A stretch of DNA of 64,000 nt from Allosphingosinicella sp. (GTDB lineage: Bacteria; Pseudomonadota; Alphaproteobacteria; Sphingomonadales; Sphingomonadaceae). Shown one piece after another: positions 31,787-50,624 of the stretch. Under the pieces are notes generated by a model that made no database searches, had not been told where the DNA came from, and worked only from the letters and a program-made list of their open reading frames with translations. The position numbers and the translations under genes were made by a program. The stretch covers positions 4,711 through 68,710 of the forward strand of contig DASTFN010000044.1 of the NCBI GenBank assembly GCA_035719905.1. Direction: 5' to 3'. How positions within the stretch are numbered: position 1 is the first letter of the stretch; each line of letters begins with the position of its first letter.

Positions 31787-32925
31787 GCCCTCACTCCCAG
31801 CAGCAGGTTCCAGCCGCCGCGGCGCTCGCCAACCGCTCGCCGGAAGTCAGCCGTGTCGCCAAAGGCGCGTTCGTAGGCGACGCCGACATAGGGCGCGAAC
31901 TCACGCTTGATCTCGTAGCGGAGACGGAGCCCAAGCTCGGCTGTGGAGAGACCCGATCCAATGCCGATCTCCGGCACGTCCTGAGCGGCCAGGTCTAGCT
32001 CGATACGCGGCTGGAGGATCAGCTTCTGGGTGAGGCGCAGATCGCTCTCCACCTCGAAGCGCGCCGAGACATCGCCCTTGTTCGACACGATCGCCGCGGC
32101 ATCGACTTCGAGCCAGTAGGGCGCGAGCCCCTCGATGCCGAGCACGAGATAAGCCCGCTCCGGGTCCGGCCGAAGGTCGTAGCGAACACCCGCCTGCAGG
32201 TTCCACCAGGGATCGATCGCCCGGCTGTAGAGCGCCTGGACCTCGGCCTGCTCAGGCTTGCGCCCGAAATCGCCCTCGATCTCAGTCTTCAGCCAGAGCT
32301 TGTTGATGTCGCCGCCGTACCAGGCTTCGGCGTTCAGGAAGTAGCCGTCGCGGCCGCTCCTGATCCGCGCCTCGAGTTGGTCGATCAGGATCTTCGACGT
32401 CACGATCGAGCCGTGCTCCCGCCGGAGCTCCTCTCGCGCCTCGGCCATCGCCTCCTGCCCGAAGAGTGAGTCCGCCGCGTGATCTGGCCCGGATAGCGCG
32501 CCAGGCGGCGGAGGTGCGACGGGCGGCGCCGGTCTCTGCTCGGCCATCGCGCTCATGTCGTGCCCCGCGTGAGGATCGCCGGCTGGCGGCGTTGATGCGG
32601 GCGGCATCGCATGGCCCGCGTGCGGGTCTGCCGCAGGCGCCGGAGCAGGCACCGGCATGACGTGGCCGGCATGGGGATCAGCGGCGGGCGACGGAGACGG
32701 CATCGGCATCGGCGTCGGCGGAGCAGGCATGACATGGCCCGCATGCGGATCAGCGGCGGGCGCGGCAGCCGGAGCAGGCATGACATGGCCCGCGTGAGGG
32801 TCGGCCGCCGGCTCGGCCGGCTTGGTCTCCTCCTTCGGCGGCGCCGGCATCGTGTGGCCCTCATGTTGGGCGAGCGCGGGGGCCGAGACGGAGGCCGCAA
32901 GAGCGAGGATCAAGATCTTCTTCAT
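31777..32925 (-). CDS. copB: Copper resistance outer membrane protein B
   Basis: Start MKKILIL at 32925; His/Met repeats; W.GGD.NKLWLKTE, GLRLRYEIKREFAPYVG, GVRAWF terminus. Confidence 0.93.
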   Translation of the reverse strand: MKKILILALAASVSAPALAQHEGHTMPAPPKEETKPAEPAADPHAGHVMPAPAAAPAADPHAGHVMPAPPTPMPMPSPSPAADPHAGHVMPVPAPAPAADPHAGHAMPPASTPPAGDPHAGHDMSAMAEQRPAPPVAPPPPGALSGPDHAADSLFGQEAMAEAREELRREHGSIVTSKILIDQLEARIRSGRDGYFLNAEAWYGGDINKLWLKTEIEGDFGRKPEQAEVQALYSRAIDPWWNLQAGVRYDLRPDPERAYLVLGIEGLAPYWLEVDAAAIVSNKGDVSARFEVESDLRLTQKLILQPRIELDLAAQDVPEIGIGSGLSTAELGLRLRYEIKREFAPYVGVAYERAFGDTADFRRAVGERRGGWNLLLGVRAWF

Positions 32926-34751
32926 GCCGCGTCTCCGTCGAGCGGCCGGACCGTCACGACACGCATCATCCCGGCGTGCATGTGGAGCAGCAGGTGGCAG
33001 TGGAACGCCCAGTCGCCGGGCGCATCGGCGGTCATGTCGAAGCTTAGCTTCGCCCCGGGCAGCACCATCACCGTGTGCTTGACCGGCTTGGCCTCCTGCC
33101 CGTTCACGACCTCGAAGAAGTGGCCGTGAATATGCATCGGGTGGGTCATCATCGAATCGTTGATCATGGTGACCCGCACCCGCTCGTTCCGCTCGAAACG
33201 GATCGGATCGGGATTCTCGCTGAACTTCTCGCCGTCGATCGACCACATGAAGCGCTCCATGTTGCCGGTCAGATGGACCTCGACGGTCCGAGTCGGCGCC
33301 CGGGTGTCCGGGCTTGGCGTCAGCGCCATGAGGTCCCGATAGGTCAGCACCTTGTGCCCAACGTCCTCGAGCCCGAGGCCCGGATCGCCGGTCCGGTCCA
33401 CAGGCGCCATCGCGATCGCGTCGACGCCCACCCCCACCTTGACGTTCGGCGGCACCTTCGACTTGTCGCGCATGTTCATGCCGCTCATGTCCATGCCGCC
33501 GCTGGAGCTCGGAGCGGCGGAGGCCGAGGCGGGATCTGAACCGTGATCCATGCCCGCCATCGCGCCTGTCGCGGCGGCACCTGCGCCGGCTCCATGGTCC
33601 ATTCCCGGCATCGAGCCGTGGTCCATGCCGCCCATGCCCATGTCCTTCATGGTCAGGACAGGCCGCTGCCGGAGCGGCGGCACCGCGGTGGCCATGCCCA
33701 TCCGAGGCGCCAGCGTTGCCCGGCCCTTTCCGGACCGGTCCATCGACTCGGCAACGAAGGTGTAGGCCTGGTCGCCGGGGGTCACGATCACGTCGTAGGT
33801 CTCGGCATTGCCGATCTGGAGCTCGTGGACGTCGACCGGCATCACGTTCTGCCCGTCGGCGCTCACTACCTTCATATCCAAACCGGGAATTCGGATATTG
33901 AATATGGTCATCGCGGCGGCGTTGATGATCCGAAGCCGCACCCGCTCGCCCGGCTGGAACAGCCCGGTCCAGTTCTCAGCTGGGCCGTGGCCGTTGATCA
34001 GATAGGTGTAGGCGGCGGCCGTCACGTCGAGAATGTCAGTAGGGTCCATCCGCATCTTCGCGAACATCGCCCGGTCGGCGGCCGGCATCTGCTGCTCGGG
34101 ATCGCCGCTAAGGCGCCCGAGCAGGGTCATCTTCTGCCGGTTGAAATAGCCGCCCTCCTTCTTGAGCTTGGTGATGAGCTCGTGCGGATGCCGGAAGGTC
34201 CAGTCGGAGAGCACGATCACATGCTCGCGGTCGTAGGCGACCGGGTCGGCGTCGGCGGGATCGATCACGATTGGGCCGTAATGGCCCATCTGCTCCTGTA
34301 GACCCGAGTGGCTGTGATACCAGTAGGTGCCCGACTGCCGGATCGGGAACTCGTAGACGAAGGTCGACTTCGCCTTGATGCCGGGGAAGCTCACCCCCGG
34401 CACGCCGTCCATCTGGAACGGCAGGATGAAGCCGTGCCAGTGGATCGAGGTATCCTCGTCCAAGCCGTTCTTCACCGCGATCCGGGCGTTCTGGCCCTCT
34501 CTGAGCCGCAGCAGCGGGCCCGGGATCGTACCGTTGATCATCACCGCCTTGCCGGTGCGGCCACCGACTGAGAAAGGCTTCATACCGATCTCGAGGGCGA
34601 TATCCTCGCCCGATAGCGTCGGCAGGGTCGGCGCGAGGCCGGGCGTGCCGCTATGTGCCCAGGCCGGGAACAGCCCCTGCATGCCGAGGCCAAAGGTGCC
34701 GAGCGCTCCGGCGCGGAGCAAAGTCCGGCGGTCAACTGAAATCTGATTCAT
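32922..34751 (-). CDS. copA: CopA/PcoA multicopper oxidase (Tat-exported)
   Basis: RR Tat motif, IHWHG, YWYHSH, HPMHIHGH, WAFHCHLLLHMHAGM. Confidence 0.96.
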   Translation of the reverse strand: MNQISVDRRTLLRAGALGTFGLGMQGLFPAWAHSGTPGLAPTLPTLSGEDIALEIGMKPFSVGGRTGKAVMINGTIPGPLLRLREGQNARIAVKNGLDEDTSIHWHGFILPFQMDGVPGVSFPGIKAKSTFVYEFPIRQSGTYWYHSHSGLQEQMGHYGPIVIDPADADPVAYDREHVIVLSDWTFRHPHELITKLKKEGGYFNRQKMTLLGRLSGDPEQQMPAADRAMFAKMRMDPTDILDVTAAAYTYLINGHGPAENWTGLFQPGERVRLRIINAAAMTIFNIRIPGLDMKVVSADGQNVMPVDVHELQIGNAETYDVIVTPGDQAYTFVAESMDRSGKGRATLAPRMGMATAVPPLRQRPVLTMKDMGMGGMDHGSMPGMDHGAGAGAAATGAMAGMDHGSDPASASAAPSSSGGMDMSGMNMRDKSKVPPNVKVGVGVDAIAMAPVDRTGDPGLGLEDVGHKVLTYRDLMALTPSPDTRAPTRTVEVHLTGNMERFMWSIDGEKFSENPDPIRFERNERVRVTMINDSMMTHPMHIHGHFFEVVNGQEAKPVKHTVMVLPGAKLSFDMTADAPGDWAFHCHLLLHMHAGMMRVVTVRPLDGDAA

Positions 34752-34845
34752 GATCGTCCTCACAGGCGCACGCCTCCTCGGCGCGCACGGGGCGTCAGCG
34801 AGAGCCGGAGGCGGCGCACGCAGCGCCGCCTCCGCTCCTCATTGC

Positions 34846-35566: not shown

Positions 35567-35958
35567 GACGCTTTCCCTTCGAGGCCGCCCAGGATCGGGC
35601 AGTCGGGGCGCTCGTCACCATGGCAATTGGCGGCAAGGTGCTCGAGCGAGCGCCGCATGGCGTCGAGCTCCTTCGCCTTGCGCTTCAGCTCGGCCGCCCG
35701 AGCCAGCGCCAGGGCCTTCACGTCGGCGCTGGCCCGTCCGCGGTCCTGCCACAGTTCGAGGAGCTTGCCGATTTCCTCGATCGGGAAACCCAGATCCCGG
35801 GCCCGCCGAATGAAACGAAGCGTATGGATGTCGCGCTCATCATAGTCCCGGTAGCCCGAGTCCCGCCTCGCCGCCTTGCCGATCAGCCCGATCGACTCGT
35901 AGTGGCGGATCATCCGCTGGCTGACGCCGCTTTCGGTCGAGGCCTGCCCGATCTTCAT
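35563..35958 (-). CDS. cueR: Cu(I)-responsive MerR-family regulator
   Basis: [24 protein letters not shown]-terminal CHGDERPDC. Confidence 0.92.
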
Positions 35959-38312
35959 AGCCGCACTCCCCTCAGCCGGAGCGAGTTGCCGATTACCGCG
36001 ACCGAGCTCAAGGCCATCGCCGCGCCGGCTATCATCGGGCTGAGCAGCAGGCCGAAGAGCGGGTAGAAGACCCCGGCCGCGATTGGCACGCCCGCCCCGT
36101 TGAACACGAACGAGAAGAACAGGTTCTGGCGAATGTTGCGCATCACCGCCCGGCTGAGGCGCCTTGCGCGGACGATTCCGCCGAGATCACCCTTCACAAG
36201 CGTCACCGCCGCGCTCTCCATGGCGACGTCAGTCCCGGTCCCCATAGCGATGCCAACATCGGCGGCCGCAAGCGCGGGAGCGTCGTTGATGCCGTCCCCG
36301 GCCATGGCAACCCGCCGGCCTGAGGCCTTCAGACGCTCGACCACCGCTTGCTTCTGATCCGGGAGGACGTCGGCGATGACCTCGTCGATGCCGCCGACCT
36401 GGCGCGCCACCGCCTCAGCGGTTCGCCGATTGTCCCCGGTGAGCATCACCACCCGGACACCGTCCCGGCGCAGTTCGGCAATCGCCTCAGCCGCGCTCTC
36501 CTTGATCGGGTCGGCGACTGCGATGAGCCCCGCCAGCTTGCCGTCGACGGCGACGAACATCACGCCCTGACCCTCGGAGCGAAGCTCGTCAGCCTGACCC
36601 ATCAGGGGGGAGGGGTCTATGCCGAGATCGGCCAGCAGGACCTTATTGCCCAGCGCCACCGGCCGGCCCTCGACCGAGCCGCTGACGCCTTTGCCCGTAT
36701 GCGAAGCGAAGTCGGTGGTTCCAGCCAAAGCGAGGCCGCGCTCCTCGGCCCCTTCGACGATCGCGGCAGCCAGCGGATGCTCGCTGCCGCGCTCCAGCGA
36801 GGCTGCAAGGCGCAGCAGATCGGCCTCGTCGACACCGGCCGCCGGGATGACCGCCGTGAGCTTGGGCTTGCCCAGCGTCAGGGTGCCGGTCTTGTCGACG
36901 ACCAGAGTATCGATCCGCTCCATCAGTTCGAGCGCCTGGGCGTTCTTTACCAGCACGCCGGCCGTGGCGCCGCGGCCGGTCCCGACCATGATCGACATCG
37001 GCGTGGCAAGGCCAAGCGCACAGGGGCAGGCGATGATCAGCACCGCCACCGCGTTGACGATGGCGAAGCTCATTGCCGGCTCCGGTCCGAAGATCGCCCA
37101 GACCCCGAAGGAAATGATTGCGATGAGGATGACCGCGGGCACGAACCAGGCGGACACCTTGTCGGCGAGCGCCTGGATCGGGGCGCGAGAGCGCTGCGCC
37201 TCGGCGACCATCCGGACGATCTGGGAGAGCATCGTGTCCTGACCGACCCGCTCGGCCCGCATCAGCAGGCTGCCGGTGCCGTTGACGGTGGCACCCGTCA
37301 CCTTCTCTCCCGGCACTTTTTCCACCGGAACCGGCTCGCCGCTGATCATCGACTCATCCACTGACGAACGGCCCTCGACGACCACGCCGTCGACCGGCAC
37401 CTTTTCGCCCGGCCGCACCCGAAGCAGATCGCCGGCATGGACGTGACCGAGGTCGATATCCTCCTCGCGCCCGTCGTCGCGGACGATCCTCGCCGTCTTC
37501 GGCGCCAGCCCGAGCAGCGCCCGGATCGCCTTGCCGGTGGCCGAGCGGGCGCGCAACTCCAGCACCTGCCCAAGCAGAACCAGGGTCGTAATCACCGCCG
37601 CGGCCTCGAAATAGACAGGCACCACGCCGCCCATCGTACGGAAGGAGGGCGGGAACAGGTTTGGAGCCAGGGTCGCGACGAGGCTGTAGGAATATGCCAC
37701 GCCGACGCCGAGGCTGATCAGAGTGAACATGTTGAGGTTGCGGCTCTTCAGCGACGCCCAGCCCCGCTCGAAGAACGGCCAGCCGCCCCAGAGCACGACC
37801 GGCGTTGCGAGCGCGAGCTGCACCCACACCGAGGTCCTCATGGGCAACCAGTGCCAGCCCAACAGCTCCGAGCCCATTGCCAGAACGAACAGCGGCAGCG
37901 ACAGGGCCGCGCTCACCCAGAAGCGGCGGCTCATGTCGATCAGCTCGGGATTCGGGCCCTCGTCGAGGGTTGGCATCTCCGGCTCGAGCGCCATGCCGCA
38001 GATCGGACAGCTGCCAGGGCCAATCTGGCGGATCTCCGGATGCATCGGACAGGTCCAGATCGCGCCCTCAGGCACGTCCTCCGCCCCGGCCGCCTCGGCT
38101 TTCGGATGTAGATAGCGATGCGGATCGGCGATGAACTTGGTCCGGCAGCCCGCGCTGCAGAAATGATAGGTCGCGCCGTCGAGCTCGTGATGATGCGCCG
38201 TCGCCGCCGGATCGACCGTCATCCCGCAGACCGGATCCTTCACCGTGGCCGCCTCCGGCTGGGCGGTATGATCGTGATGGCAATGTCCGGCATGGTGATT
38301 CTGGGCGTCCAC
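35955..38312 (-). CDS. P1B-type copper-translocating ATPase with YHS domain
   Basis: [41 protein letters not shown]. Probable GTG start at 38312 with GAGGAGG RBS. Confidence 0.96.
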
Positions 38313-38370
38313 AGCTCGATCCTCCTCGACGAAGCCGCCGATTCGGCTCCCGTGGACCCTCACATGGTGT

Positions 38371-38455: not shown

Positions 38456-39349
38456 CTACCCCAGCCTCTTACGGCAGACCCGCTCCACGCGCCGCTGAAG
38501 CTCCGTAACCCGCTCCGTCAGCCAAGTGATCTCGTTTCGGGAGATCCTGTAGTGCGGCGAGTAACGGGCGTTTACATAGGCCTGTCGCAGCAGTTCGAAG
38601 GCCCGCCGCTCGAATTTTCCTTCCCTGGGCCAGGCCTCGATCAACTCCGGAGCTATCTGTTCAGCCTGGGACCGCAGGAAGTTCAGCTTGTGCGACTTGG
38701 GGCTGTAGAGGGTCAGAACGAGCAGGACGCAGTGATACAGCCGCTCTGCCGTCTGATGGAGGTCGAAGGCAGCCTCCTTCCAATATTCCTTGCCGGCGGC
38801 CGTGCGGGCCAGATCGAAACGGCGCTCGGCGCTTGGATACCACTCGTTGAAATAGGCCTCCGCTTCGACCCTCGCCTGTTCCTCCGGCAGCTTTCTCGGC
38901 GTGGTGAAGGCGAAGCCCTGAGCCTCGTAGAGGACCGCCCCGTGCTCCACGATGTCCACGAAGAAGGGGCGGCCCCGCTCGAGCTGGCTGTTCACGTCGG
39001 AAAGCGAATGGACGATAAAGTTGACGGGCGCGCTGAGGCTCCCGGCAATCGATGTCTCGCGCATCAGCCTGTCGTCGGCGACCGACCAGAAGTCGATCAC
39101 GTCCGTCAGACGATCGTCGCTGACGACGACGAGGATATCGTAGTCCGATCTGTAGCCACCGACCGGATCATCCACCCAGTCTCCTCGGGCATAGGAGCCG
39201 TAGAGCACCACCTTGAGGATGCGTCCGCCCTTTTTCCATTGCTGGCTCGCCCGCGCCGTGACCGACTCGAACTCCTCAAAGAGAATCCGAACCACCGAGG
39301 CGAGCTCTCGCTGCTTGCCGTCCGGCAGATGATCCAGGCTCGTTTTCAT
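38456..39349 (-). CDS. Fused minimal nucleotidyltransferase-HEPN protein
   Basis: Start MKTSLDHLP at 39349; LYGSYARGD..SDYDILVV; HEPN-like AAFDLHQ.AE..HKL..YVNARY. Confidence 0.88.
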   Translation of the reverse strand: MKTSLDHLPDGKQRELASVVRILFEEFESVTARASQQWKKGGRILKVVLYGSYARGDWVDDPVGGYRSDYDILVVVSDDRLTDVIDFWSVADDRLMRETSIAGSLSAPVNFIVHSLSDVNSQLERGRPFFVDIVEHGAVLYEAQGFAFTTPRKLPEEQARVEAEAYFNEWYPSAERRFDLARTAAGKEYWKEAAFDLHQTAERLYHCVLLVLTLYSPKSHKLNFLRSQAEQIAPELIEAWPREGKFERRAFELLRQAYVNARYSPHYRISRNEITWLTERVTELQRRVERVCRKRLG

Positions 39350-39876
39350 CCCGCCCCATGTCGTCGCGCCGGCGCGGAATGCCAAGCGCATTTCATCGCT
39401 GTGCGTCCGCCGCGGCTCGCGTGAGCGGCCGTCCCGACGGCTCCCGCCCGTCGATTGAAAAGAGTCACAGTCTTTTCCCTCGAACATCCCCATAAATCTT
39501 TTCGGTCCGGATCGGACCTTCCTGCGAGCGTTCCGAATGCTCAACCCGTTGAACATCCATGGAGTCCGCTCGGCGCACCCTCCCTTGCTGCCAGCACCGT
39601 CCGTCCCAATCGGGTTCCCAATTCAGGAATCCAATGCAATACGCGGATTGATCGGCTCGAGCAGAGATGCAAACACTCGCAGGACGTCGACAGCACGACT
39701 CGCACGGAGCACCCAAGGTGGAAGTGCACACACCGCCACTTGAACATCTCCACGCAGCACCGACGTAGTCGTCACAACAATCGCATACCCAACCGTCGCC
39801 GCTTCACTGCGGAGGCGGCTTTACAAGCAGGATCGGAATAAGTAGCGTGGTGGACGACGCACGGCAGGGGGCAAGC

Positions 39877-40500
39877 ATGGCGAGTACTGTGGACGCATCG
39901 TCCGATGCGGTATCTCGCGACTCCCGTGCAGCCCAGTTCCACTCCTTCCATCGATTTCAAAGCCAGCAGTCCGATTGGGTACCCTTCGAACCAACGAAGC
40001 CCAGCGGCATGTCGACGCCCCAGATCGAAACTTTGGCCGAAGGCCTCGCATCCGAGCTGAACTATGTTCCGGGTACGGACATCCGCGAACTCGTCGTTCG
40101 TATAGGCGGCAAACTCTTGTCGACACCGGTACTCGGCGTGTCGGATGGCACTGACGGCACCCTGCTGCTTCGCCCGGACTCAACAAATTTCGTGATAGTT
40201 CTTCCAGTCAGAGCGAGCTCGCGCCAGGATCAACTGGCAGTAGCCAAATTACTGGGGCACTATTTTTTGCATTATCGGTTTTTCCAAATCGAAACCGAGG
40301 GCAAGGCCAGTCGTCCAACGCCGGCGCGAGCACAGCGCGAAGCGCTGCTATTCGCACTTGCGTTCCTTATGCCAGCAGAGGCATTTTCTCGCGCCTATGA
40401 ACTGGCACACGGGAAGATGGACGTGGTAGCAGCGTCTTTCGGCGTGCCGTTCGAAGCGGCGGAACTGCGTCACCGGAGGCTCCAGATCCGAGCCAAGTAA
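39877..40500 (+). CDS. ImmA/IrrE (DUF955)-like protein with degenerate HExxH
   Basis: AKLLGHYFLH where AHELGH is expected; EALLFALAFLMP where EANxFAAxxLMP is expected. Confidence 0.7.
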   Translation: MASTVDASSDAVSRDSRAAQFHSFHRFQSQQSDWVPFEPTKPSGMSTPQIETLAEGLASELNYVPGTDIRELVVRIGGKLLSTPVLGVSDGTDGTLLLRPDSTNFVIVLPVRASSRQDQLAVAKLLGHYFLHYRFFQIETEGKASRPTPARAQREALLFALAFLMPAEAFSRAYELAHGKMDVVAASFGVPFEAAELRHRRLQIRAK

Positions 40501-40518
40501 ACCGCCATCGGGGGGCTA

Positions 40519-41718
40519 GTGGCGCAACTTCCAGACCATATTCCCGAGATTCTGAAACCGCGCCTGCGCCTCTTCATGAGCGTGGATGTCGTCGGCTCGA
40601 CGAAGCTGAAGCAGCCCGAGTTTCTCAGCAAGCAGATCGATTGGCTCGACATTCTGCAGCGGTTCTACGGTGAGACTGTCGAGGCCGTGCAGACTGAATG
40701 GCTCGCCCTGCGAGCGCTTTTCCCGGATCCTGCCACCCACCCGGACTTCCTTGGCGATCCGCCGCAATTCTGGAAAACGGTCGGCGACGAGGTCCTCTAC
40801 TACAAGGACCTCACCGACAGCCGGCAGCTGGCCCTCGCCCTCGAATGCTGGAAGAAAGCGCTGACGCGGGTCAGGACCTTCCTCTACAAACAGAACGAGG
40901 GCGCGCTCAAAGACGCGGTTCCGGAGGTTAAGCTCGACGTCAAATCGGCCGTATGGACTGCCGGCTTCCCCTGGCGGAACAAGACGATCGTGAGCCCGTC
41001 CGGATTGCTCAACGAGCTGTGCAAGGGTGACTACGCCGAGGTGTTCCAGAACGCCCACGAGAAGGCTCACCGCGAACCAGCGCCAGGAGACGGAACGGGC
41101 GCGCGGGTCGAATTCGATTTCATCGGCCCAGGCATCGACATCGGGTTTCGCCTCTGCGGATTTGCGACGGTGCAAAAAATGGTGCTGAGCATGGATGCCG
41201 CCTACATCCTAGCGGCAGTTCGCGGCGCCAACGCCTTCCTTCTACCGGAACCTCTATATTATGACGGGCGCATTCCCCTCAAAGGCGTCTTCGCCGGCCG
41301 GGAATATCCGCTTTTTTGGATCGACAACTCCCATCCCGACTCCTTCGAAGCCAAGGAGTCGCGCGCTCGGCATCCCATCAGCGACACCGATGTCCTCAGA
41401 TTCTGCGAGACGTTTTACAAGGAATTCTACAACCTCTTCACGCACCGCCCCTTTATCGTCGGCGACCATGGCGGCCTCACCGCGATACCCGACGATTTCG
41501 ACCGCTGGATGGGTGTCCAGGTTGCCCAGTACGAAGAGCGCCGGAAAGAAGGCGAGCGCCGCCAGCAGGCCGAGCAGGAACTGACGAGAGCCGGCGCTTC
41601 GCGCGGAGGCGGCGCACGGCAGCCGGCCGCAATCGACGTCAACGAACTCAAACAGAGACTCACTCGGGATATCGCACCCCAGGCCGAGGACGAGCCTGAG
41701 GCTCCCAAAAAAACCTAG
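40519..41718 (+). CDS. Class III nucleotidyl cyclase-like protein
   Basis: LFMSVDVVGST, WKTVGDEV, DFIGPGIDIGFRL match the D-xx-GST / GD / GxxV(N/D)xAxR layout. Confidence 0.65.
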   Translation: MAQLPDHIPEILKPRLRLFMSVDVVGSTKLKQPEFLSKQIDWLDILQRFYGETVEAVQTEWLALRALFPDPATHPDFLGDPPQFWKTVGDEVLYYKDLTDSRQLALALECWKKALTRVRTFLYKQNEGALKDAVPEVKLDVKSAVWTAGFPWRNKTIVSPSGLLNELCKGDYAEVFQNAHEKAHREPAPGDGTGARVEFDFIGPGIDIGFRLCGFATVQKMVLSMDAAYILAAVRGANAFLLPEPLYYDGRIPLKGVFAGREYPLFWIDNSHPDSFEAKESRARHPISDTDVLRFCETFYKEFYNLFTHRPFIVGDHGGLTAIPDDFDRWMGVQVAQYEERRKEGERRQQAEQELTRAGASRGGGARQPAAIDVNELKQRLTRDIAPQAEDEPEAPKKT

Positions 41719-41758: not shown

Positions 41759-42838
41759 CTACCGTTCCAAGGCTCCGCGGAACGCGTCGGGGAAAACATC
41801 GATCGCATCAAGCACCGCCGAAAGGGCCAGCGCCGGGCGTTCAGCGAGCTCTTCGACCGATAACGGCGGGATCATCGACAAGAGATGGAGCGCCCTGGGA
41901 TCGTCTGGGACCGGCTCGCCAGCGGCCTGCCCTACCACCCACGGCAAGAGCGCGAACAACGCCAGCTCGTGAGCACGCCTGTAGAAGCAGGCTTCGCGCA
42001 CATCAGGGTGATCGATGCTGCGAGCGAACTCATCGACGGTCCAGGCAGTCGGATGGCGCTCCCGCCAGGCTTTCACCCAGGCATCCTCGCGAGGAAAGCC
42101 TGATGTCGCGAAGTGAAGCGCCGGCTCCTCGATAATCCTCCTCCTGGACGACTCCGCCTGCGCTGGGTTCACCCGGATCTTCACCGCTCCGTAGCGCAGC
42201 CTCGCCCGCAGGAACAGACGAGTGGTCTCGGCGTGAACGGTACCGCCCAAGCGATCCTGCTCTCGAAAATGTCCACCCCAGCGGACATAGTCGGAAAGCA
42301 AGTAGCCGCACGCTTTGTCGTCGACGATTACCTCCTCATTGTCGCCGACGCCGGCGGCCTCCATCGCATCGACGATCGACCTTTCGAGCGCCCGATATTC
42401 GGGATGAGCCGCATCGAACTCTGCAGATCGGCGAATCGCTCCCTCGAGCAGGAAGCCCCGACGGCCGGCCAGCGCTTCCCACATACGCTGCGAATACCCG
42501 GGCAAGTAAAGCGTGTCGGCGTCCGCCTGAAGGATCAAGAGTTCCTCAGGCGCAATGCCAAGGTCGGCTGCTAGATCGGCCGCCGCGAAAGCGCCCCGTC
42601 GCCTCGGCGGAACGAACCCGCGCTCAGGCTCGACGAGGATCCGGACGGATCCCGGGCGGGACGCGGAGGCGATCCGTTCCATAACCGCCGGCGTCCGGTC
42701 GGTTGAACCGTTGTCGATAAGGAACAGGAATACATCATCAGCCGCCGCAACACCGCTTACGCCAAAGCCGAGCGATGAGGCTGCAGCTTCGATGTATCCT
42801 TCCTCGTTGAGGCAGGGGATGACGATGGCGACTGCCAT
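41759..42838 (-). CDS. GT2 / GT-A glycosyltransferase, last gene of the RiPP operon
   Basis: AIVIPCLNEE, LIDNGSTDRT, LQADAD; starts 1 bp after the upstream stop. Confidence 0.88.
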   Translation of the reverse strand: MAVAIVIPCLNEEGYIEAAASSLGFGVSGVAAADDVFLFLIDNGSTDRTPAVMERIASASRPGSVRILVEPERGFVPPRRRGAFAAADLAADLGIAPEELLILQADADTLYLPGYSQRMWEALAGRRGFLLEGAIRRSAEFDAAHPEYRALERSIVDAMEAAGVGDNEEVIVDDKACGYLLSDYVRWGGHFREQDRLGGTVHAETTRLFLRARLRYGAVKIRVNPAQAESSRRRIIEEPALHFATSGFPREDAWVKAWRERHPTAWTVDEFARSIDHPDVREACFYRRAHELALFALLPWVVGQAAGEPVPDDPRALHLLSMIPPLSVEELAERPALALSAVLDAIDVFPDAFRGALER

Positions 42839-42839
42839 C

Positions 42840-43418
42840 TCAAGGTCGAGCCGGACGAACGGCCACCGTTCTCCTCGCCGCCCGCCGACTCGCGCCTCCG
42901 CCGTTGGGTTTTTGCGGCAACAAGGCCCGAGCCATCCGCAACGACGCTGCGCATCGCGGCGAGCAGGGCACATGGCTGATCCTCGTGCGTCCCTCATTAT
43001 AGCCGCTCGGGTCGATCATCCTAAAAAGGCCGACAAAGCGCCGCGATGCGATCGTCTGTCCCCAATCGTCTAGCCCTTCATCATTGCGACGCCCGGCTGC
43101 AATGCAACAACACGCCGGATACCCTAGGGCCAGGCCCAGGGCGATGGTATGCCTCCCGGCCCTGGCGTCGATGCGCAAGACCCGCCGGGCTGAGCCGGCG
43201 ATGGGAGCGATGGAGAAAAACCCGTCTTTGTCTACAGCCGCGAAGAGCCCTTGCCGACGGGCCCACCGGCGAACCTCATGGCGATCCGCCCGATACACCA
43301 GCTGACTTCGCATTACCGGCCTGACCGACCCTCGAAGCTGAGCGAGATCGACTTCCGCCGAAGCGCGCATCCAACGCGGCCTGGCGCTCGATCCGGTCAA
43401 GACCGTTTCCTCGTCCAC
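42840..43418 (-). CDS. Cys-rich DUF483-like hypothetical protein
   Basis: LGLALGYPACC and SHVPCSPRC..S motifs; overlaps the GNAT stop. Confidence 0.6.
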   Translation of the reverse strand: MDEETVLTGSSARPRWMRASAEVDLAQLRGSVRPVMRSQLVYRADRHEVRRWARRQGLFAAVDKDGFFSIAPIAGSARRVLRIDARAGRHTIALGLALGYPACCCIAAGRRNDEGLDDWGQTIASRRFVGLFRMIDPSGYNEGRTRISHVPCSPRCAASLRMARALLPQKPNGGGASRRAARRTVAVRPARP

Positions 43419-43867
43419 TTCATGATCAGCTGATTGGTCGGCAAACCGGCGTCGACATAGCCGGCTTCCTCGGCGGCGCGGCGGGAAGCCACATTGATCT
43501 TCCGCATGTGGGCGTAGACGACATCATACTGGCTCGCCTCGCTTGCGAGCCGATAAGCTATACGACCAACGCCTCGGCCTTGGGAGGACTGGTTCAGATA
43601 GATTTGAATCGAGGCGTGCTTTCCGACCGGCGCCTCATCGATCCAATTGATGTAAATCACTCCTGCCCGCTTGCCGGCCGCGCGGATCACCCAGGCATGA
43701 CCGCCGGGACCGCCGCCCTTTCCGGGCGTCCCCTTGGTAGGAACCAACTCCACCTCGGCCGCAGTGACCTTGGCTAGGTCGGGTCTGGGTTTCGATGCCT
43801 TCGGCTTGGGTGTCGGCCGCGTCGGCGACCTCGGCCGCGAAGGCGGTTTGCGCTTGGAATCAGGCAT
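43397..43867 (-). CDS. GNAT-family N-acetyltransferase
   Basis: SQGRGVG (Q/RxxGxG), N.ASRRAAE.AGY; ATG at 43867 overlaps the upstream stop. Confidence 0.85.
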   Translation of the reverse strand: MPDSKRKPPSRPRSPTRPTPKPKASKPRPDLAKVTAAEVELVPTKGTPGKGGGPGGHAWVIRAAGKRAGVIYINWIDEAPVGKHASIQIYLNQSSQGRGVGRIAYRLASEASQYDVVYAHMRKINVASRRAAEEAGYVDAGLPTNQLIMKWTRKRS

Positions 43868-44855
43868 AGAGCTCCTCCAGCCCCGCCTGCAGACGCCGGT
43901 CGGACTCGTCCCACAGCTCGGCCGGGAAAAACCCCGGCGAAAAGGCGATGACAGCGTCCTCAATCCTCGGCACCAGCTGCGCGTTCCTTAGAACGGAGGT
44001 CAGCCGATCCACCTGCCGAAGGACGTCATCCGCTCCCGGGTCGAGCACTTCCGGGCGCTCGCGCCAATCCCCGTCACCATCATATCGGTTGTTGAAATAA
44101 TCCATGTCGACGTGGAGCAGGACGGGCCCAGGCCCGATATTCTCAACCCACCGGTCGAGATCGTCAGTGATCCGATATTTGCCTGGGCCAGTGCCGGCGC
44201 TCGCCTTCACGAGCTTCACCGCCGGCCGTGACGCGCCAGGCTCGAGAAGATCGTCGGGTTCGTGGCCAAGTTCAATCGTGTAGTCCGTCGTCTCGCGTAT
44301 CTTCGGCGCCTGACCGAGCTGCCGCACATCCGCCTGTGGAAAGCGATGCAGGAAGGGCGTCAGGAAGCTGCCCATACCCACGGCCCCGCTTTCCAGCGCG
44401 GAGCGAACACTGCCTGGTGATGCCACGTCGAAAACCTCACCGCTGATCGGGTCGACCAACTCGCCGTCGCGCGTGAACAACCGGGGCGATGCAAGGTCGC
44501 GATGATCGTCAACATGGAGAATTGTCAGCGGATCGCGCGGAGAGCTGCCTGATCGTGCAACCCACTCGCTCCAGCTGTGCAGCGTCCAAGTATCGTACAG
44601 CGCCCGAAGCACTCGGCCCGTACGTCGCCTTGCTAGTGCCATCTCGCCGCGGCCGATACCACCCCACGACCCGAGGCCGGTGTCCAGCGCCGGATCGACA
44701 TGGCGATCCTCGCCGTCAGGCCAGCCAAGCCTCAGTTCCCAATGATCGCCGTGCCGAACGGCCGTGGCGTCCTTGTCGCAGAAGTAGTCCCTGAGGGCGC
44801 CGTGGCGAGCGGCCTCGTTCTCCGGCAGCCGCTCCAGGGGCACATTCAGCGACAT
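43860..44855 (-). CDS. Arginase/ureohydrolase-fold (UPF0489-like) metalloenzyme
   Basis: LHVDDHRDL (HxDxHxD), LHVDMDYF (DxD), SPGFFP; TGATG-coupled to the radical SAM gene. Confidence 0.72.
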   Translation of the reverse strand: MSLNVPLERLPENEAARHGALRDYFCDKDATAVRHGDHWELRLGWPDGEDRHVDPALDTGLGSWGGIGRGEMALARRRTGRVLRALYDTWTLHSWSEWVARSGSSPRDPLTILHVDDHRDLASPRLFTRDGELVDPISGEVFDVASPGSVRSALESGAVGMGSFLTPFLHRFPQADVRQLGQAPKIRETTDYTIELGHEPDDLLEPGASRPAVKLVKASAGTGPGKYRITDDLDRWVENIGPGPVLLHVDMDYFNNRYDGDGDWRERPEVLDPGADDVLRQVDRLTSVLRNAQLVPRIEDAVIAFSPGFFPAELWDESDRRLQAGLEELYA

Positions 44856-46990
44856 CAGGCAGCCAGCGACTGGTGCGTCGCCTGACCCTCCAGCACTCCG
44901 GCCAAAGCCCGGCCAACCTCGGTGAGTGGACATCCCCGCAGGGTGGCGAACGCCTCCTCCAGGTTGCGATCGGTGTCGGCAAGCTGATTGAGGGCACGCA
45001 TCCTCAGACGCTCCGGCCCGCGATCCCGAACATGCTCCCAGAATCGCCGCAGCTCGATGAACACGAACACCGCATGTAGGACCCCGGACGCCGGGCGAAG
45101 ATCCTCCCGCCATGGAGACACTACAAGGCCTCCCGGCTCCGTCATCGGGAAACGCCGCTCGAGTAGGTAGAGCTTTTGATGGCGATGCTCATGGATGAGC
45201 GAGTCGGCGAGATCGTAGGGATCGATGATCCGATCGCCCTGAACGACGGATACGAACAAGGCGCCGGGCACCGAGTTGTCGCTGAAGGAGACAATCTTCT
45301 CCGGGTGCGCCGACGGGTCGCGAACAAACTGAACGGCTCGACAGATTCGGCCTATCTCTTCCCTGAGGGCTGGCCGCCATTCCCCGATGATATCGAGAGC
45401 CTCGCTCACCACCGGTGCGGCCGATGCCGCGACCTCCGGCCCCTCAAAGGCAATGGATGCGCCGAACGGTGCGCGCAGCCAGGGATCGTCAATGCCGACC
45501 GACAATCCGTTTGTCGCTATCGGCCGACTTAGCACCTGCTCGAGATACGACACATTGGGGCTAAGCGGCGCCCCGTCGACGTCGTAGACCGTGCGGCCCT
45601 CACGCTGAGCTATAAATGCCCTCTGCCACGCCGTCAGGCCGGGATTGCCAGCCAGGATCAATTTCTCTTCAGAGCTGAGGCCATCAATGAGTTCGTGCAG
45701 CCGCTGATCGCCGAGACCGGCTCCGACGACTTCGCTCAATGCCTTGTCGAGGTCCGCGGCATTCTCTTGGCAAGTTTCGTCCCATAGCTCCGCGACGATA
45801 GGCGCCGCGCGCTCGGCAAGCTCGTAGGCCGCCAGATCGACATCGAGCTCACGCGGCGCAGGAGCGGCCGGACCAGCCAGCCCGCCCTCCAGCCGTCGTC
45901 GGACGTGGGCGACAAGGCTTTGCATCTCGCCGCAGTAGACGGTGGGATTGGCAAAGCCATCGGCACCGAAGCGATGGGGCACGGAACCGCCGCCGCAAAT
46001 GTCGACGATCCCGCAGGCCTGGCAAACCGGGCTTAAGCCCTCTTTCGACAGCAAGCGGCGATGGGCTTCGATCGCGTCTGAGGAAGCGACGACAGAAATT
46101 GGAGTATCGCGAACCGAACCCGCAAGACGCGTCGCTCCGTCCCCCACCACCTTCAGTACGTCGAGGTCATGATAGGTGCCGTCAGTCTCAATGGTGATCA
46201 GGCTGACGTCGCCCAGACCGAACGCATCGGTTCCAGATGAAAGCCCCATGATCGCGTCGAGCAGGGATTCAAAAGTCCGCACTCGCAGCTCAGGATATTG
46301 GTCGAACCATATATCAAACGCTTCGATCAGCCATCTCTCGTAGCGGCCGGGGTCAAGATCCCGGCCGGGTGGCGGCTGATTGTGGTGCGAGTCCGGAAGC
46401 AGGAAATCGAGCTTGGGAGGTGCGTGGCCGGAAAAATATTCAAAGAGCGTCGCCGGCGGCACGCTCGCATCGATTACCGAGATAACGCCCGCGAAAGTAT
46501 TGGGCCTGGCCTTCAACCGCTCCAGGGCCGCCTCGACTTTATCGAAGCTCGATCGCCCACGCCGCGTGGTCCTGTGGAGATCGTTCACCTGCCGAGGCCC
46601 ATCGAGGCTCAACGAGACCGAAATCCGCTCCGCCTCCAAGGCGTCGAGGACTTCGTCCGTGAGGAGCAGCCCATTGGTTTGCATGCCGACTTCAAGCTCG
46701 ACATCAGGGCCCACGGCCGAGCGTAAGTCACGCGCGAACTCGACGATGTGATCACTGCCGGCGAGCAGCGGCTCCCCGCCGTGGAAAATCACCGCAGCGC
46801 GCTTCAGGCCGACTTCAGACGCGTATTCCGCAAGCCGGTTCGCAAAAGCCGCGCGGTCGTCAGCGGAAAGATGGCGTGGCATCGACCGCCAGGCCTGGTC
46901 CGCATGATGATAGACGTAGCAATAATCGCAATCGAGGTTGCACCTCGATGCGACCTTGACGAGGAACGACGTAATCCTCGCCGCTGTCAT
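44855..46990 (-). CDS. yhhB: Radical SAM/SPASM peptide maturase fused to HExxH domain (FxsB/YhhB-type cyclophane synthase)
   Basis: KVASRCNLDCDYC, IFHGGEPLL, SPASM CQAC...CGGG..HR..YC, C-terminal LIHEHRHQKL; 10 bp downstream of the precursor. Confidence 0.88.
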   Translation of the reverse strand: MTAARITSFLVKVASRCNLDCDYCYVYHHADQAWRSMPRHLSADDRAAFANRLAEYASEVGLKRAAVIFHGGEPLLAGSDHIVEFARDLRSAVGPDVELEVGMQTNGLLLTDEVLDALEAERISVSLSLDGPRQVNDLHRTTRRGRSSFDKVEAALERLKARPNTFAGVISVIDASVPPATLFEYFSGHAPPKLDFLLPDSHHNQPPPGRDLDPGRYERWLIEAFDIWFDQYPELRVRTFESLLDAIMGLSSGTDAFGLGDVSLITIETDGTYHDLDVLKVVGDGATRLAGSVRDTPISVVASSDAIEAHRRLLSKEGLSPVCQACGIVDICGGGSVPHRFGADGFANPTVYCGEMQSLVAHVRRRLEGGLAGPAAPAPRELDVDLAAYELAERAAPIVAELWDETCQENAADLDKALSEVVGAGLGDQRLHELIDGLSSEEKLILAGNPGLTAWQRAFIAQREGRTVYDVDGAPLSPNVSYLEQVLSRPIATNGLSVGIDDPWLRAPFGASIAFEGPEVAASAAPVVSEALDIIGEWRPALREEIGRICRAVQFVRDPSAHPEKIVSFSDNSVPGALFVSVVQGDRIIDPYDLADSLIHEHRHQKLYLLERRFPMTEPGGLVVSPWREDLRPASGVLHAVFVFIELRRFWEHVRDRGPERLRMRALNQLADTDRNLEEAFATLRGCPLTEVGRALAGVLEGQATHQSLAA

Positions 46991-47000: not shown

Positions 47001-47174
47001 CTACGAGCGGCTGTGACGGTGATGCATCCGGTCGTAGCTGGTGATCACCTCGCTCGCCTCAGCTTCGGCCAGCACACGCTGCTGAAGCCGCTGGAGCGCA
47101 GGATTGGCAGGGCGCGCGCCGAGAACGGCAGAGCGGAGAGAGGCAGACGACTTGGAAGCCAATGCGGCGGACAT
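47001..47174 (-). CDS. yhhA: RiPP precursor peptide, 57 aa (YhhA-type triceptide precursor); absent from ORF track
   Basis: Manual translation MSAALASKSSASLRSAVLGARPANPALQRLQQRVLAEAEASEVITSYDRMHHRHSRS*; strong RBS AAAAGGAG; directly upstream of the radical SAM gene. Confidence 0.88.
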   Translation of the reverse strand: MSAALASKSSASLRSAVLGARPANPALQRLQQRVLAEAEASEVITSYDRMHHRHSRS

Positions 47175-47358: not shown

Positions 47359-49056
47359 ATGTCTTCTCCCCTCGAAGCTTATCGAATCTTTATCGCTTCA
47401 CCGAGCGGACTAAAGGCCGTGCGAGAGCGCTTTCGAGCCACAATAGACAAGTACAATGAGACCGATGCCAACCGGCGCGGCGTGATGTTCATGGCGGTAG
47501 GGTGGGAAGCCACCCTTCCCGGAATCGGGCGGCCGCAGAAGATCATCAACGACGATCTCCATGGCTGCGATTACTTCGTCCTTGTCCTCCATGATCGGTG
47601 GGGGACTCCCGCCTCCAACGAACCTGATGCGGAAACGGGATCGGAGGAGGAATTCCGCATCGCGCTCGAGTTGCAGCAAGACAGCGACAAAGCGATGCGG
47701 GACGTGGTCGTCTTCTTCGTCAGCGTCGACCCGGGAAAAATGAGCGACCCAGGCCCGCAGCTCCAGAAGGTGCTCGATTTCAGGAAAAAGATCGAGGCTG
47801 ACAAGAAGCTCCTCTACCGCCAGGTCGAGAATGCGGACGACTTTGCCGACGCCTTGCGCGCCCATCTCGCCCGTTGGCTTCATAACCACGAGCAGGGCAA
47901 GGCCGGCGGGAACGGCGCCGAGGCCGAAGTCCCAGCCGAATCCGAAACCATTGCCCTCGCGCCGGAACCGGCTGAGGTTGGAGCGCCGGGCCCGGACGAT
48001 CAGGGAACGGCGTCGCCGGCGGCACCCAACAGCGGCGACGACCTCGTCGCGAGAGCGAACCAGCTGATCGCCGAATCTAAACCCACCGAGGCCGAAAGCC
48101 TGCTCGCCACGGCTGCCGAAAAGAGGAACAATCCCGCCCACTTGCTGGCCTACGCCGAGCTCTTGGCCCGCCTCAGTCGTCCCCGAGCAGCCGTGACGGA
48201 GTACGAAGCGACCGCGGACTTGGCCCAGGACGCGGGCGAAGCCGAAATCGCACTGCGCGCCCTCTTGGCTCTGGCCTATCTGCAGGATGATCTCGGCCGC
48301 GGCGATAAGGCGGAAGAGGCGGCCGCAAGAGCCATCGAGATTAGCCTCGCCACAGACGAGCTCCCGGGCGCCGCGCGAGCTCGGATCCTGCTTGGCGAGC
48401 GGCGACGGCGAGCGGCCCGATTCGCGGAGGCCGAGGAGGAGTATCGCCAGAGCATCGATCTCGCCGCTCACGGAGGCGACCCCCTGGCCGAGGCTGACGC
48501 ACGGATCGGCCTCAGCGAGGTTTTTCGCGATCAGGAAAGGCTCGATGAGGCGCGCGAGTCCCTCTGCAAAGGCATCGCCTTGAAACAGCAGGGCGGAGTC
48601 ACGGATCTCGGGGACGCTTATGCTGCGCTTGGCGCTATCCTCGAGACGATGGGCGACGAGGACGGCGCCGAAAAGCACTACGGAATGAGCCTCGAGCTTT
48701 TCAAACAGAAGGGCGACCGGTCCGGACGGGCAGATGCGGCCGATCACCTCGGCCAGGTCCGGCTTAGACGAGGCGACCTTGAAGGTGCCGAAGACGCCTT
48801 CCGCGACAGCGCCTCACTCTTCGAGGGAATGTTCAACTTCGAAGGCGCTGCCGACGCCTATCTCAGCCTGGGCCGGATTCAGACCGAGAGAGGCGATTTA
48901 GGAGCTGCGGAGGAATCGTTCCGCTCAGCACTCTCCCTGGCCGAACGCAAAAAAGACCCGGCGGCACGCTCGCTTCGCGAGGATATCCTCAACTATCTGG
49001 AGAGCATTATCGCGCGCGCCGGCGCCGTGGTGGATCAGCCCCCTCCGGCCGGTTGA
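47359..49056 (+). CDS. DUF4062-domain plus TPR-repeat protein
   Basis: RIFIASPS..ER..GWE..QK.IN..L..CD.FV..L..RWGT..EEEF..A; C-terminal helical TPR-like repeats. Confidence 0.8.
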   Translation: MSSPLEAYRIFIASPSGLKAVRERFRATIDKYNETDANRRGVMFMAVGWEATLPGIGRPQKIINDDLHGCDYFVLVLHDRWGTPASNEPDAETGSEEEFRIALELQQDSDKAMRDVVVFFVSVDPGKMSDPGPQLQKVLDFRKKIEADKKLLYRQVENADDFADALRAHLARWLHNHEQGKAGGNGAEAEVPAESETIALAPEPAEVGAPGPDDQGTASPAAPNSGDDLVARANQLIAESKPTEAESLLATAAEKRNNPAHLLAYAELLARLSRPRAAVTEYEATADLAQDAGEAEIALRALLALAYLQDDLGRGDKAEEAAARAIEISLATDELPGAARARILLGERRRRAARFAEAEEEYRQSIDLAAHGGDPLAEADARIGLSEVFRDQERLDEARESLCKGIALKQQGGVTDLGDAYAALGAILETMGDEDGAEKHYGMSLELFKQKGDRSGRADAADHLGQVRLRRGDLEGAEDAFRDSASLFEGMFNFEGAADAYLSLGRIQTERGDLGAAEESFRSALSLAERKKDPAARSLREDILNYLESIIARAGAVVDQPPPAG

Positions 49057-49064
49057 CCCGAGAC

Positions 49065-50624
49065 TTAGAATTTCCAGCGGTCTTCCCAGGTGGAAAGCGT
49101 CATCTCACCCACCAGGCCGGGGCTGGCCTTTTGTCCGCGCCGGCGTTCTTCCTGCTCAACCGCCAAAGACAGGTAGATCAGCGCGGCTCGGGCCTTCTTC
49201 ATCACGAGCATCGCCTTTTCCGCGAAGTCGTCTCGCGACAAAGAAATCCGCAAGCCGTCGGAGGACAGCTCGAGCTTGTGCGCATGCTCGGCCCGCCATG
49301 CCCATCCCTCGTGAAGCTGAAGATATTTGTGTTCGAGGTGGTTGCGAAGGTCCGCCAAGTCCCTCGCCTCGGGTTCGAGGGCTTGGCGTGCCTGCTCCTC
49401 GAAGATGTCCTTGGAGAGCCAGAACAAGCCTCGCAGCGGCCAGTTCTGCAGCAGGGAAAATTGCGTAAGGAGCGGCTTGGGAGGCTTCCCCTTCACCTCA
49501 TACCAAACGCTCCTGAAGCTGACCTGCGTCGGCTTGTGGCCGACGCTCCAGTAGGAGTTGATGAAGTAGGCGATCTTATCGAACAGCGAGTAGGCCGCCC
49601 GATAGCCAAGCCGCAGCAGCTCCGTCGCCCGGCTGAGCGAGGGATAATCGAACGTGTTGTACTGGAGGACCCAGCGATCCGAGAAGTGCGGCTTATCGGC
49701 CTGAAGGCCCTCGAAGAGGGCGTATCGCGCCGACACATATTCCTGCTTCAGCTGATTGAAGAAGCCGATCACCACCGGCATCCCAGGATCGGATGTGCTG
49801 ATCGAGGGGAGGGTCAGCACATCGTGCGCCGCGATCGGAGCCTGCACCACGTCGTTGAGCGGGTTTAGAAACAATCGGTTGGCGAGACACCATGACCGGT
49901 AATCCCGCTCGAGACGGCTCCGTCCGAGGCTGCCCCGCTCAGGCTTAAAGTCGCTGCGGATCTCGTCGAGTGGAAAATAGCCGGCGATCTCCTCCCGGTG
50001 CCTGGTGAAATAGGCATCGGCATCCTCGACCGCGGCGCTATCGATGACTGCGCCCTCCTCCGCCGACCGCGCCAGGCTGTCATGGGCCTCCAGTGCGAAG
50101 ATCCCGACATGTCCTGAATCGTACAGAGATCGCGCATAATGGGAGAGGCCGACGCCGCGGTTTCCGAGCGCCATGGCGAACGTCGGAATGATCCGCAGCG
50201 CCCGGTCCCAGACCTCAAGCGCCTCAATGAACCTGCCGATCGTATCGAGGCATCCGGCGAGATTGGTCAGAATCTGACATTGGCGAACAGGGTCTAGTTT
50301 CGGAAACTCATCATGATTGACTGCCTTTCTCAATGCCAGGATCTGAGCTTCGAGACAGGCGTCCTCCCAGGCCCAAGGGTCTGGCTGGGCGATCGCGCGC
50401 CGGGCTGCCAGCAAGTTTGCCTGGAAATAATGGACCAATATTTCGTCGGCGGCCGCGAGGGTACGAGTTCCTAGCTCGGTGAGGACCTGCTCAGCTCGAT
50501 CGAGGCCCGCCGCAATACCGCCTTCATGCGATAAATCGATCAATGTCGCGGCGGCCGACAAGGCCTGATCTGTCGGCAGACGCTCGATGGGTGCATCGAT
50601 CAGGCGTTTTAGAAATGCATCCAC
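49065..50624 (-). CDS. TPR plus LA2681-type HEPN protein (putative RNase toxin)
   Basis: N-terminal TPR (LTNLAG..GRF.EA..WDRAL), NRLFLNPLND, LRGLFWLSKD, RNHLEH (Rx4H). Confidence 0.8.
   Translation of the reverse strand: MDAFLKRLIDAPIERLPTDQALSAAATLIDLSHEGGIAAGLDRAEQVLTELGTRTLAAADEILVHYFQANLLAARRAIAQPDPWAWEDACLEAQILALRKAVNHDEFPKLDPVRQCQILTNLAGCLDTIGRFIEALEVWDRALRIIPTFAMALGNRGVGLSHYARSLYDSGHVGIFALEAHDSLARSAEEGAVIDSAAVEDADAYFTRHREEIAGYFPLDEIRSDFKPERGSLGRSRLERDYRSWCLANRLFLNPLNDVVQAPIAAHDVLTLPSISTSDPGMPVVIGFFNQLKQEYVSARYALFEGLQADKPHFSDRWVLQYNTFDYPSLSRATELLRLGYRAAYSLFDKIAYFINSYWSVGHKPTQVSFRSVWYEVKGKPPKPLLTQFSLLQNWPLRGLFWLSKDIFEEQARQALEPEARDLADLRNHLEHKYLQLHEGWAWRAEHAHKLELSSDGLRISLSRDDFAEKAMLVMKKARAALIYLSLAVEQEERRRGQKASPGLVGEMTLSTWEDRWKF

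Follow-up and report, generated by a model that had tools for sequence, protein, structure and literature searches.

What does an enzyme with an arginase signature do beside the gene for a cross-linked ribosomal peptide? This question is raised by a 64,000-nucleotide stretch of Allosphingosinicella sp. (contig DASTFN010000044.1), here called the window, which carries an open reading frame (ORF) of 331 amino acids at positions 43860 to 44855 of its minus strand. From the sequence alone, without database searches, the ORF had been taken for a candidate peptide arginase close to an Arg-rich peptide core, and that interpretation was supported by the family, structure, and synteny analyses described below. 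With moderate confidence, we consider that the protein would be a ureohydrolase that depends on metal, descends from the peptide-arginase lineage, and deguanidinates peptidyl-arginine of the operon's own YhhA-type peptide. What is new is a divergent peptide-arginase-like lineage, with a ligand dyad that we read as inverted, which is fixed in a different class of peptides that are made on ribosomes and modified after translation (RiPPs).

The ORF is a real gene. Its ATG has one base in common with the stop codon of the upstream radical S-adenosylmethionine (SAM) gene (TGATG), and the ATG of the following GNAT acyltransferase gene lies within its last codons, overlapping its stop (ATGCCTGA). Moreover, more than 100 homologues of 328 to 334 amino acids aligned over 97 to 100% of the protein, supporting the start that gives 331 residues.

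Fold, kinship and metal site

Direct searches with the single sequence stayed below threshold. PF12640 (UPF0489) was missed at 13.9 bits against a cutoff of 27 (E value, 0.073), the NCBIfam peptide arginase model NF052474 was missed at 17.7 bits against 350 (E value, 0.0019), and in the PDB the peptide arginase OspR (8BRP) appeared at an E value of 0.27 only; family profiles were therefore needed. The homologues amounted to 649 matches in 90% clusters, and the 120 matches listed were all named hypothetical, with an empty Pfam field; at 50% identity, there were 455 clusters at E values of ≤1e-3 and 408 at ≤1e-10. A profile of 27 members returned OspR as the sole significant PDB entry (E value, 2.6e-7), and hhalign comparison of 101 family representatives, taken from the 50%-identity clusters, with 110 PF12640 proteins gathered by using OspR as the query gave a probability of 98.9% (E value, 1.3e-17) over residues 93 to 329. 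The AlphaFold2 model of the protein (predicted local distance difference test, 93; predicted template modeling score, 0.92) confirmed a predicted arginase fold nearest to that of OspR, which was the top Foldseek match (E value, 8.8e-10; probability, 1.00; template modeling [TM] score, 0.51 to 0.57). Next came proclavaminate amidinohydrolase, N-omega-hydroxy-arginine hydrolase, and arginases at E values of 4e-3 to 0.1, and structures of the histone deacetylase (HDAC) type matched only at 0.04 to 0.4 with TM scores of <0.3, below all ureohydrolases. Assignment to the HDAC/acetylpolyamine amidohydrolase (APAH) branch thus failed, the structure being nearer to ureohydrolases and the full binuclear ligand set being kept. 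Since the sole significant relatives, by profile and by structure, belonged to the peptide arginase family, both the arginase fold and the peptide-arginase link proposed from the sequence alone held.

Every PF12640 enzyme characterized so far is a peptide arginase (PMC12703449). The present family was monophyletic with respect to PF12640 in a joint tree (support, 0.84), and it is therefore called a sister family rather than a formal PF12640 member. With the OspR-type enzymes (OspR, KspR, PhaR, FlmR, OhkR, and PbsE), it shares the arginase α/β/α fold, DxHxD and DxDYF motifs that align residue for residue (the latter within a partly altered segment), a C-terminal S-x-G-(Y/F)-x-P-x-(D/E)-x-W block, and an occurrence in RiPP operons with Arg-bearing cores and, at times, a GNAT partner (PMC10028609, PMC8784127). 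It differs from them in having L-x-(D/E)-x-W for EEH(N/H)EAF and Asp88/His248 for His12/Asp163, in an extra family-specific N-terminal domain of ~85 residues that has no counterpart in OspR, and in its tie to radical SAM cyclophane (triceptide) clusters. The known contexts of peptide arginases comprise NHLP, Nif11, SCIFF, 'SCCRRSCN', and 'DD(I/V)LF' precursors together with PbsE; triceptides are not listed among them (PMC12703449). We found no literature report of an arginase or of ornithine in a triceptide/cyclophane pathway, with prior mention in primary triceptide papers being possible. Classical ureohydrolases (arginase, agmatinase, proclavaminate amidinohydrolase, and N-omega-hydroxy-arginine hydrolase), which act on small molecules as trimers or hexamers, resemble the family in fold and binuclear ligand pattern, whereas their structural match was much weaker (E value, ≥4e-3; TM score, 0.3 to 0.4) and the family has neither the GGDHS nor the SxDxDxxDP motif.

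In OspR, one manganese ion (Mn-A) is held by His12 and Asp43 and the other (Mn-B) by His41 and Asp167, with Asp39 and Asp165 as bridging ligands (PMC10028609). In the present family, His114, Asp116, His118, Asp120, Asp250, and Asp252 were each conserved in all 101 representatives, which excludes a chance origin of the motifs, and the last five of these residues aligned by hhalign with five OspR Mn ligands. The motif segments directly follow strands 82 to 85, 111 to 115, and 245 to 250 of the model, as in arginases. The sixth OspR ligand, His12, falls in the column of Asp88, in an hhalign register anchored by a shared Trp (W95 in the family, W19 in OspR). The ligand set therefore comprises five positions identical to the ureohydrolase pattern and one carboxylate-for-imidazole exchange. 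Thus, the claim that HxDxHxD and DxD are the binuclear metal ligands of ureohydrolases stood insofar as every position holds a metal-binding residue and needed amendment for one ligand, Asp88.

The exchange at position 88 is mirrored at position 248. Position 88 was Asp in 92, Glu in 6, and His in 3 of the representatives, position 248 was His in 98 and Asp in 3, and the pairing was without exception (Asp/Glu with His in 98, His with Asp in 3); a further member with the canonical His/Asp dyad was found in Streptomyces. In PF12640, His12 and Asp163, the latter two residues ahead of the first ligand Asp, were present in 110 of 110 sequences. We read this covariation as suggesting an inversion, not a loss, of the His-carboxylate pair at Mn-A, from His12/Asp163 to Asp88/His248, and such a compensated swap argues for selection on an intact, working site. 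In rat arginase, the equivalent pair presumably consists of the ligand His101 and of Ser230, to which it is hydrogen bonded. In the DxDYF region, Y/F253-F254 is kept, the first Asp corresponds to His248, and the SC of LDIDLDYFSC is replaced by NN; the EEH(N/H)EAF motif is absent from the family, its equivalent segment being L-Y-D88-T-W. A basal position of the canonical-dyad members was considered and dropped, as these members were scattered over the joint tree without support, and therefore no order of dyad changes was inferred.

As a separate observation on PF12640, two cyanobacterial proteins positive for this model (L087:1291-2148 and L088:1285-2142) carry ILDFDLDYF at the extreme N terminus and FDAHSD ~100 residues later. 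Judged by this motif order, the reverse of that in OspR, they may be circularly permuted versions of this fold.

Operon, precursor peptides and acyltransferase partner

The arginase-like gene belongs to a run of six closely packed genes on the minus strand, from 47174 to 41759 (Table 1). Besides the enzyme, the sequence-only reading had pointed to a nearby Arg-rich core with Arg at all three predicted ring-closing positions and to an adjacent GNAT gene, and curated models and published chemistry agreed with each of these points. The precursor passed the YhhA-family model with 64 bits, is preceded by an AAGGAG ribosome-binding site, and ends in the core ITSYDRMHHRHSRS (YDR-M-HHR-HSR-S), with three aromatic-x-Arg motifs (YDR, HHR, and HSR). 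YhhB joins Tyr-C3 and His-C2 to the β-carbon of the Arg two residues on (PMC11002830), so the statement on the three Arg residues is correct, and the neighboring acyltransferase matched two GNAT models (Table 1). The 711-residue fusion of radical SAM and α-ketoglutarate (aKG)-HExxH domains scored 487.7 bits with NF041707 (cutoff, 445) and 142.8 bits with TIGR04267 (cutoff, 40); its HExxH part, at about residues 385 to 706, is a β-hydroxylase domain of the ChlH type. In the PDB, it matched ChlB (9gm3) with 452 bits and ChlH (8s5f) with 260 bits, both of which have been crystallized, and the literature on homologues has the oxygenase partner hydroxylating Asp. Precursor, radical SAM, and HExxH components are thus of the kind found in YhhA/YhhB/YhhC and ChlA/ChlBH systems, and the Tyr-x-Arg and His-x-Arg motifs match the reported cross-links (PMC11002830). 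For YhhA/ChlA systems, the literature searched describes only cyclophane formation and hydroxylation, whereas the window operon has more genes.

One scan of species-representative genomes revealed 79 loci with the arginase-like gene in Alpha-, Beta-, and Gammaproteobacteria, Bacteroidota, Cyanobacteria, Acidobacteriota, and Clostridia. In 76 of 76 evaluable loci, it adjoined a YhhB-type radical SAM gene, the other three being truncated contigs, and the remaining neighbors were HExxH (72 loci), GNAT (67), family-2 glycosyltransferase (GT2; 51), and DUF483-like (40) genes, with precursor, radical SAM-HExxH, arginase-like, GNAT, and with or without DUF483-like and GT2 as the common order. Aromatic-x-Arg motifs were present in all 70 recovered precursors. 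The core ITSYDRMHH(R/K)H(S/N)RS was near-invariant across these 70 loci, with YSRMHNRHNRS as the form in Clostridia. In Streptomyces coeruleorubidus, a cluster (L093:5307-9074) with a different core, SPYDRGGYDRTGYDRTPAM, containing YDR three times, has a YhhB-like radical SAM gene, a YhhC-like 2-oxoglutarate (2OG) oxygenase fused to DUF6817, and an arginase-like member with the canonical His/Asp dyad; the cluster lacks a GNAT gene and has several NUDIX genes at its flanks. Since all recovered precursors, that of Streptomyces included, have aromatic-x-Arg motifs, Arg stands at the ring-closing position in every context found. In random samples of 401 genomes of the window's class and 251 cyanobacterial genomes, three YhhB genes each were found, seed genomes included, which is too few for statistics; in this tiny number, the fused ChlBH type co-occurred with an arginase-like gene and the unfused type did not.

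Two further observations concern these loci. A nearly identical core, ITSYDRMHHRH(S/N)RS, recurs in Proteobacteria, Bacteroidota, Cyanobacteria, and Acidobacteriota and, with slight changes, in Clostridia (e.g., L001:5727-5849, L059:4749-4853, and L075:5503-5613); such constancy is unusual for a RiPP core and hints at a conserved target or physiological role, for which metal binding is a guess. In addition, Clostridia clusters (L075:5676-6632, L076:1467-2390, and L078:5612-6553) have a second, shorter radical SAM gene of ~310 amino acids directly upstream of the YhhB-like gene, and no HExxH domain.

The association with the GNAT goes beyond neighborhood. Among 25 longer-than-usual family representatives, 15 united the arginase-like domain with the same kind of GNAT in one polypeptide according to BLAST, giving at least 15 independent fusion clusters: 13 had the GNAT at the C terminus only (e.g., P0122, P0133, and P0136), one had it at the N terminus (P0179), and one combined it with a ParB-like head (P0189). 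P0182, a further family member, carries a C-terminal ATP-grasp domain (PF02655) as well. Considering the overlapping codons, the synteny, and these fusions, the GNAT is functionally tied to the arginase-like enzyme; its own sequence had no PDB relative at an E value of ≤0.01. Separately, an N-terminal domain of ~150 amino acids with an (I/V)DG(V/L)HR motif was seen in L073:7479-9023, P0178, P0182, P0189, and P0198; it is presumably similar to ParB or sulfiredoxin.

Predicted reaction and alternative explanations

For the favored deguanidination of the operon's own peptide, we infer the following course. In one or more of the three ring Arg side chains, a metal-activated hydroxide would attack the guanidinium carbon, which would yield ornithine and urea with a mass change of -42.02 Da per Arg. 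A GNAT, wherever there is one, separate or fused, would then acylate the exposed N-delta amine, and the DUF483-like protein and the GT2 may add later steps. As a precedent, PbsE deguanidinates an Arg within a three-residue aromatic macrocycle motif in a biphenomycin-like pathway (PMC12257519). The conserved core has no Lys, and therefore the amines available for acylation would be the N terminus after leader removal or ornithine. In selidamides, an Arg-to-Orn-to-acyl-Orn relay has been proven, with the arginase KspR or PhaR followed by the GNAT KspN or PhaN and with no acylation unless the arginase is present (PMC8784127). The selidamides kamptornamide and phaeornamide are therefore alike in unmasking an ornithine amine before acylating it; they differ in having NHLP or Nif11 leaders, lanthionine rings, and fatty-acyl GNATs, the window GNAT being a small protein of 156 residues. 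By this analogy, a full relay from the arginase-like enzyme over ornithine to GNAT acylation is, as it already was in the sequence-only reading, a tentative proposal, to which we give somewhat less than even credence.

Several points weigh against deguanidination of the peptide. The protein lies outside the PF12640 and NF052474 thresholds and has only ~17 to 23% identity to true peptide arginases, and the catalytic function of every family member is a prediction from sequence. The assignment of Asp88 and His248 as putative ligands comes from alignment and covariation. OspR Glu11, the proposed holder of the guanidinium group, has no conserved counterpart, with position 87 being variable, and Arg257 (97 of 101 representatives) and Arg210 (91 of 101) are conserved near the motifs, which is unexpected for a site that receives a cationic guanidinium. 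The GNAT gene is absent from 12 of the 79 loci, comprising four truncated contigs, one locus with a GNAT gene ~7 kb off, and seven others. These seven include all four Clostridia loci, where the arginase-like and DUF483-like genes are still kept; the enzyme must therefore have a role independent of the GNAT, and the relay is not obligatory. Moreover, a classical unfused YhhA-YhhB-YhhC-HExxH cluster (L091, from genome G528) has the equally Arg-bearing core YDRVHNRHNRGR; unlike the window operon, it is devoid of arginase-like, GNAT, DUF483-like, and GT2 genes, and no arginase-like gene was found anywhere in that genome. Core Arg content was accordingly rejected as a marker of the arginase-like gene: Arg is a part of the motif on which YhhB acts and, taken by itself, no evidence for an arginase.

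Some of these points would suit a metallohydrolase that acts on the peptide in another way, by removing leader or follower, by deacylation, by cleaving another C-N bond, or by opening a modified Arg. No protease or exporter was recognizable among the operon genes in Pfam and NCBIfam scans; the ligand swap and the loss of the EEH/Glu11 motif set the family apart from proven arginases, Arg257 and Arg210, both conserved, suggest that the substrate carries an anionic group, and the arginase/deacetylase superfamily, seen in the weak HDAC/APAH fold matches, includes amide hydrolases. On the other hand, the binuclear DxHxD plus DxD pattern is the ureohydrolase signature, unlike the single-zinc D-H-D site of deacetylases, and the close structural matches all hydrolyze guanidino or amidino groups. 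We know of no arginase-fold peptidase. On balance, we regard this alternative as unlikely, although it retains some weight.

A more far-reaching reading is doubtful in our judgment. It holds that the inverted dyad and the family-specific N-terminal domain would reflect a novel chemistry, or a novel choice of metal, on Arg cross-linked at C-beta and, jointly with this, that the arginase-like enzyme, GNAT, DUF483-like protein, and GT2 would turn the ChlA/YhhA peptide into its true end product. The core of this peptide, YDRMHHRHSRS, hardly varies among Clostridia, Cyanobacteria, and Proteobacteria, which would suit a conserved role in physiology better than a variable antibiotic; for instance, the molecule, rich in His, beta-hydroxy-Asp, and acyl-Orn, could bind metal or resemble a cofactor.

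The adjacency of a GNAT to an enzyme of the arginase/deacetylase fold, together with the HDAC-family structures among the weak fold matches, could also indicate an antagonistic pair, in which the GNAT acylates the peptide, e.g., as a self-protection cap, and the arginase-like enzyme strips the acyl group. Repeated fusion in one polypeptide makes opposing activities unlikely and fits the unmasking of an amine that is then acylated; in addition, the metal site follows the binuclear ureohydrolase pattern, and in Clostridia the enzyme is present without any GNAT. We consider such a pair quite improbable. Even less probable is a role in supplying or removing a metabolite, with free arginine, agmatine, or another small guanidine compound as the substrate instead of the peptide. 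Most ureohydrolases do use small molecules; the strict synteny with precursor and maturase across phyla, the overlapping codons, and the alignment to OspR rather than to classical arginases, with nearest relatives that act on peptides, speak against it here, and OspR is devoid of the residues by which free arginine is bound at its alpha-amino and carboxylate groups (PMC10028609). Finally, a noncatalytic role as a scaffold or recognition protein bound to the peptide or to the radical SAM enzyme, for which the ~85-residue N-terminal domain might speak, is scarcely credible, as six putative metal-binding positions that are invariant or compensated in 101 divergent representatives do not make a pseudoenzyme pattern.

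If the peptide is indeed deguanidinated, the family would add to the enzymes that introduce ornithine into ribosomal peptides a second lineage, distinct in structure; such enzymes are few and are wanted as peptide-engineering tools. An unnamed family of 455 clusters accompanies fused ChlBH-type clusters in several phyla, often fused to an acyltransferase. Considering that it stands so consistently beside the peptide-stapling machinery, the known stapled product is probably not final; the natural product is probably processed further, with ornithine and acyl-ornithine being most likely. The bioactivities of YhhA/ChlA-type triceptides have not been elucidated (PMC12257519). Conversion of Arg to N-delta-acetyl-Orn shifts the mass by only about -0.011 Da, and low-resolution mass spectrometry could therefore miss it.

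Gene neighborhood in the window

Table 1. Features of the operon and its flanks in the window
Feature	Positions	Strand	Remarks
MNT-HEPN	38456-39556
IrrE/M78-like gene and unassigned 399-amino-acid gene	39847-41718
GT2 glycosyltransferase	41759-42838	-	PF00535, E value 3e-8; likely start one base past the DUF483-like stop
DUF483-like Cys-rich protein	42840-43418	-	LGYPxCC ... HxPCSxxC; PF04467 in 13 of 17 members, best E value 2.7e-4
GNAT acyltransferase	43397-43867	-	156 amino acids; likely start ATG 43867; PF13302, E value 1e-6; PF00583, E value 1e-5
Arginase-fold enzyme	43860-44855	-	331 amino acids; unnamed sister family of PF12640 peptide arginases
HVDMD (H248-D252)	44100-44114 (DMD, 44100-44108)	-	D250 and D252 align with OspR D165 and D167; H248 at OspR D163
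HVDDHRD (H114-D120)	44496-44516	-	D116, H118, and D120 align with OspR D39, H41, and D43 (HMMER, hhalign)
Asp88	44592-44594	-	aligns with the Mn-A ligand His12 of OspR
Radical SAM/SPASM cyclophane synthase fused to aKG-HExxH domain	44855-46990	-	711 amino acids; synthase of YhhB/ChlB type, residues 1-370
YhhA-family precursor	47001-47174	-	57 amino acids; NCBIfam NF041705, 64.1 bits (cutoff, 36)
DUF4062-TPR	47359-49056
LA2681-like HEPN	49065-50624		PF18733, E value 5e-72

The DUF483-like protein has invariant D24, R37, D84, H90, LGYPxCC, D117, Y140, and HxPCxxxC, with other copies at L075:8789-9268 and L057:9577-10023. Its gene follows the arginase-like and GNAT genes where it occurs and persists in Clostridia without GNAT and HExxH. 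Its AlphaFold2 model (predicted local distance difference test, 88) had no significant sequence or fold match in the PDB; the pattern of four Cys and one His would suggest a metal or Fe-S site.

A few kilobases from the operon of the His-rich peptide, two ORFs were picked out by eye as candidate genes, one (32922-34763) for a multicopper oxidase and the other (35955-38363) for a heavy-metal P-type ATPase, and their closeness may be coincidental. The operon is also bounded on both sides by genes resembling conflict systems, at 38456 to 41718 and at 47359 to 50624.

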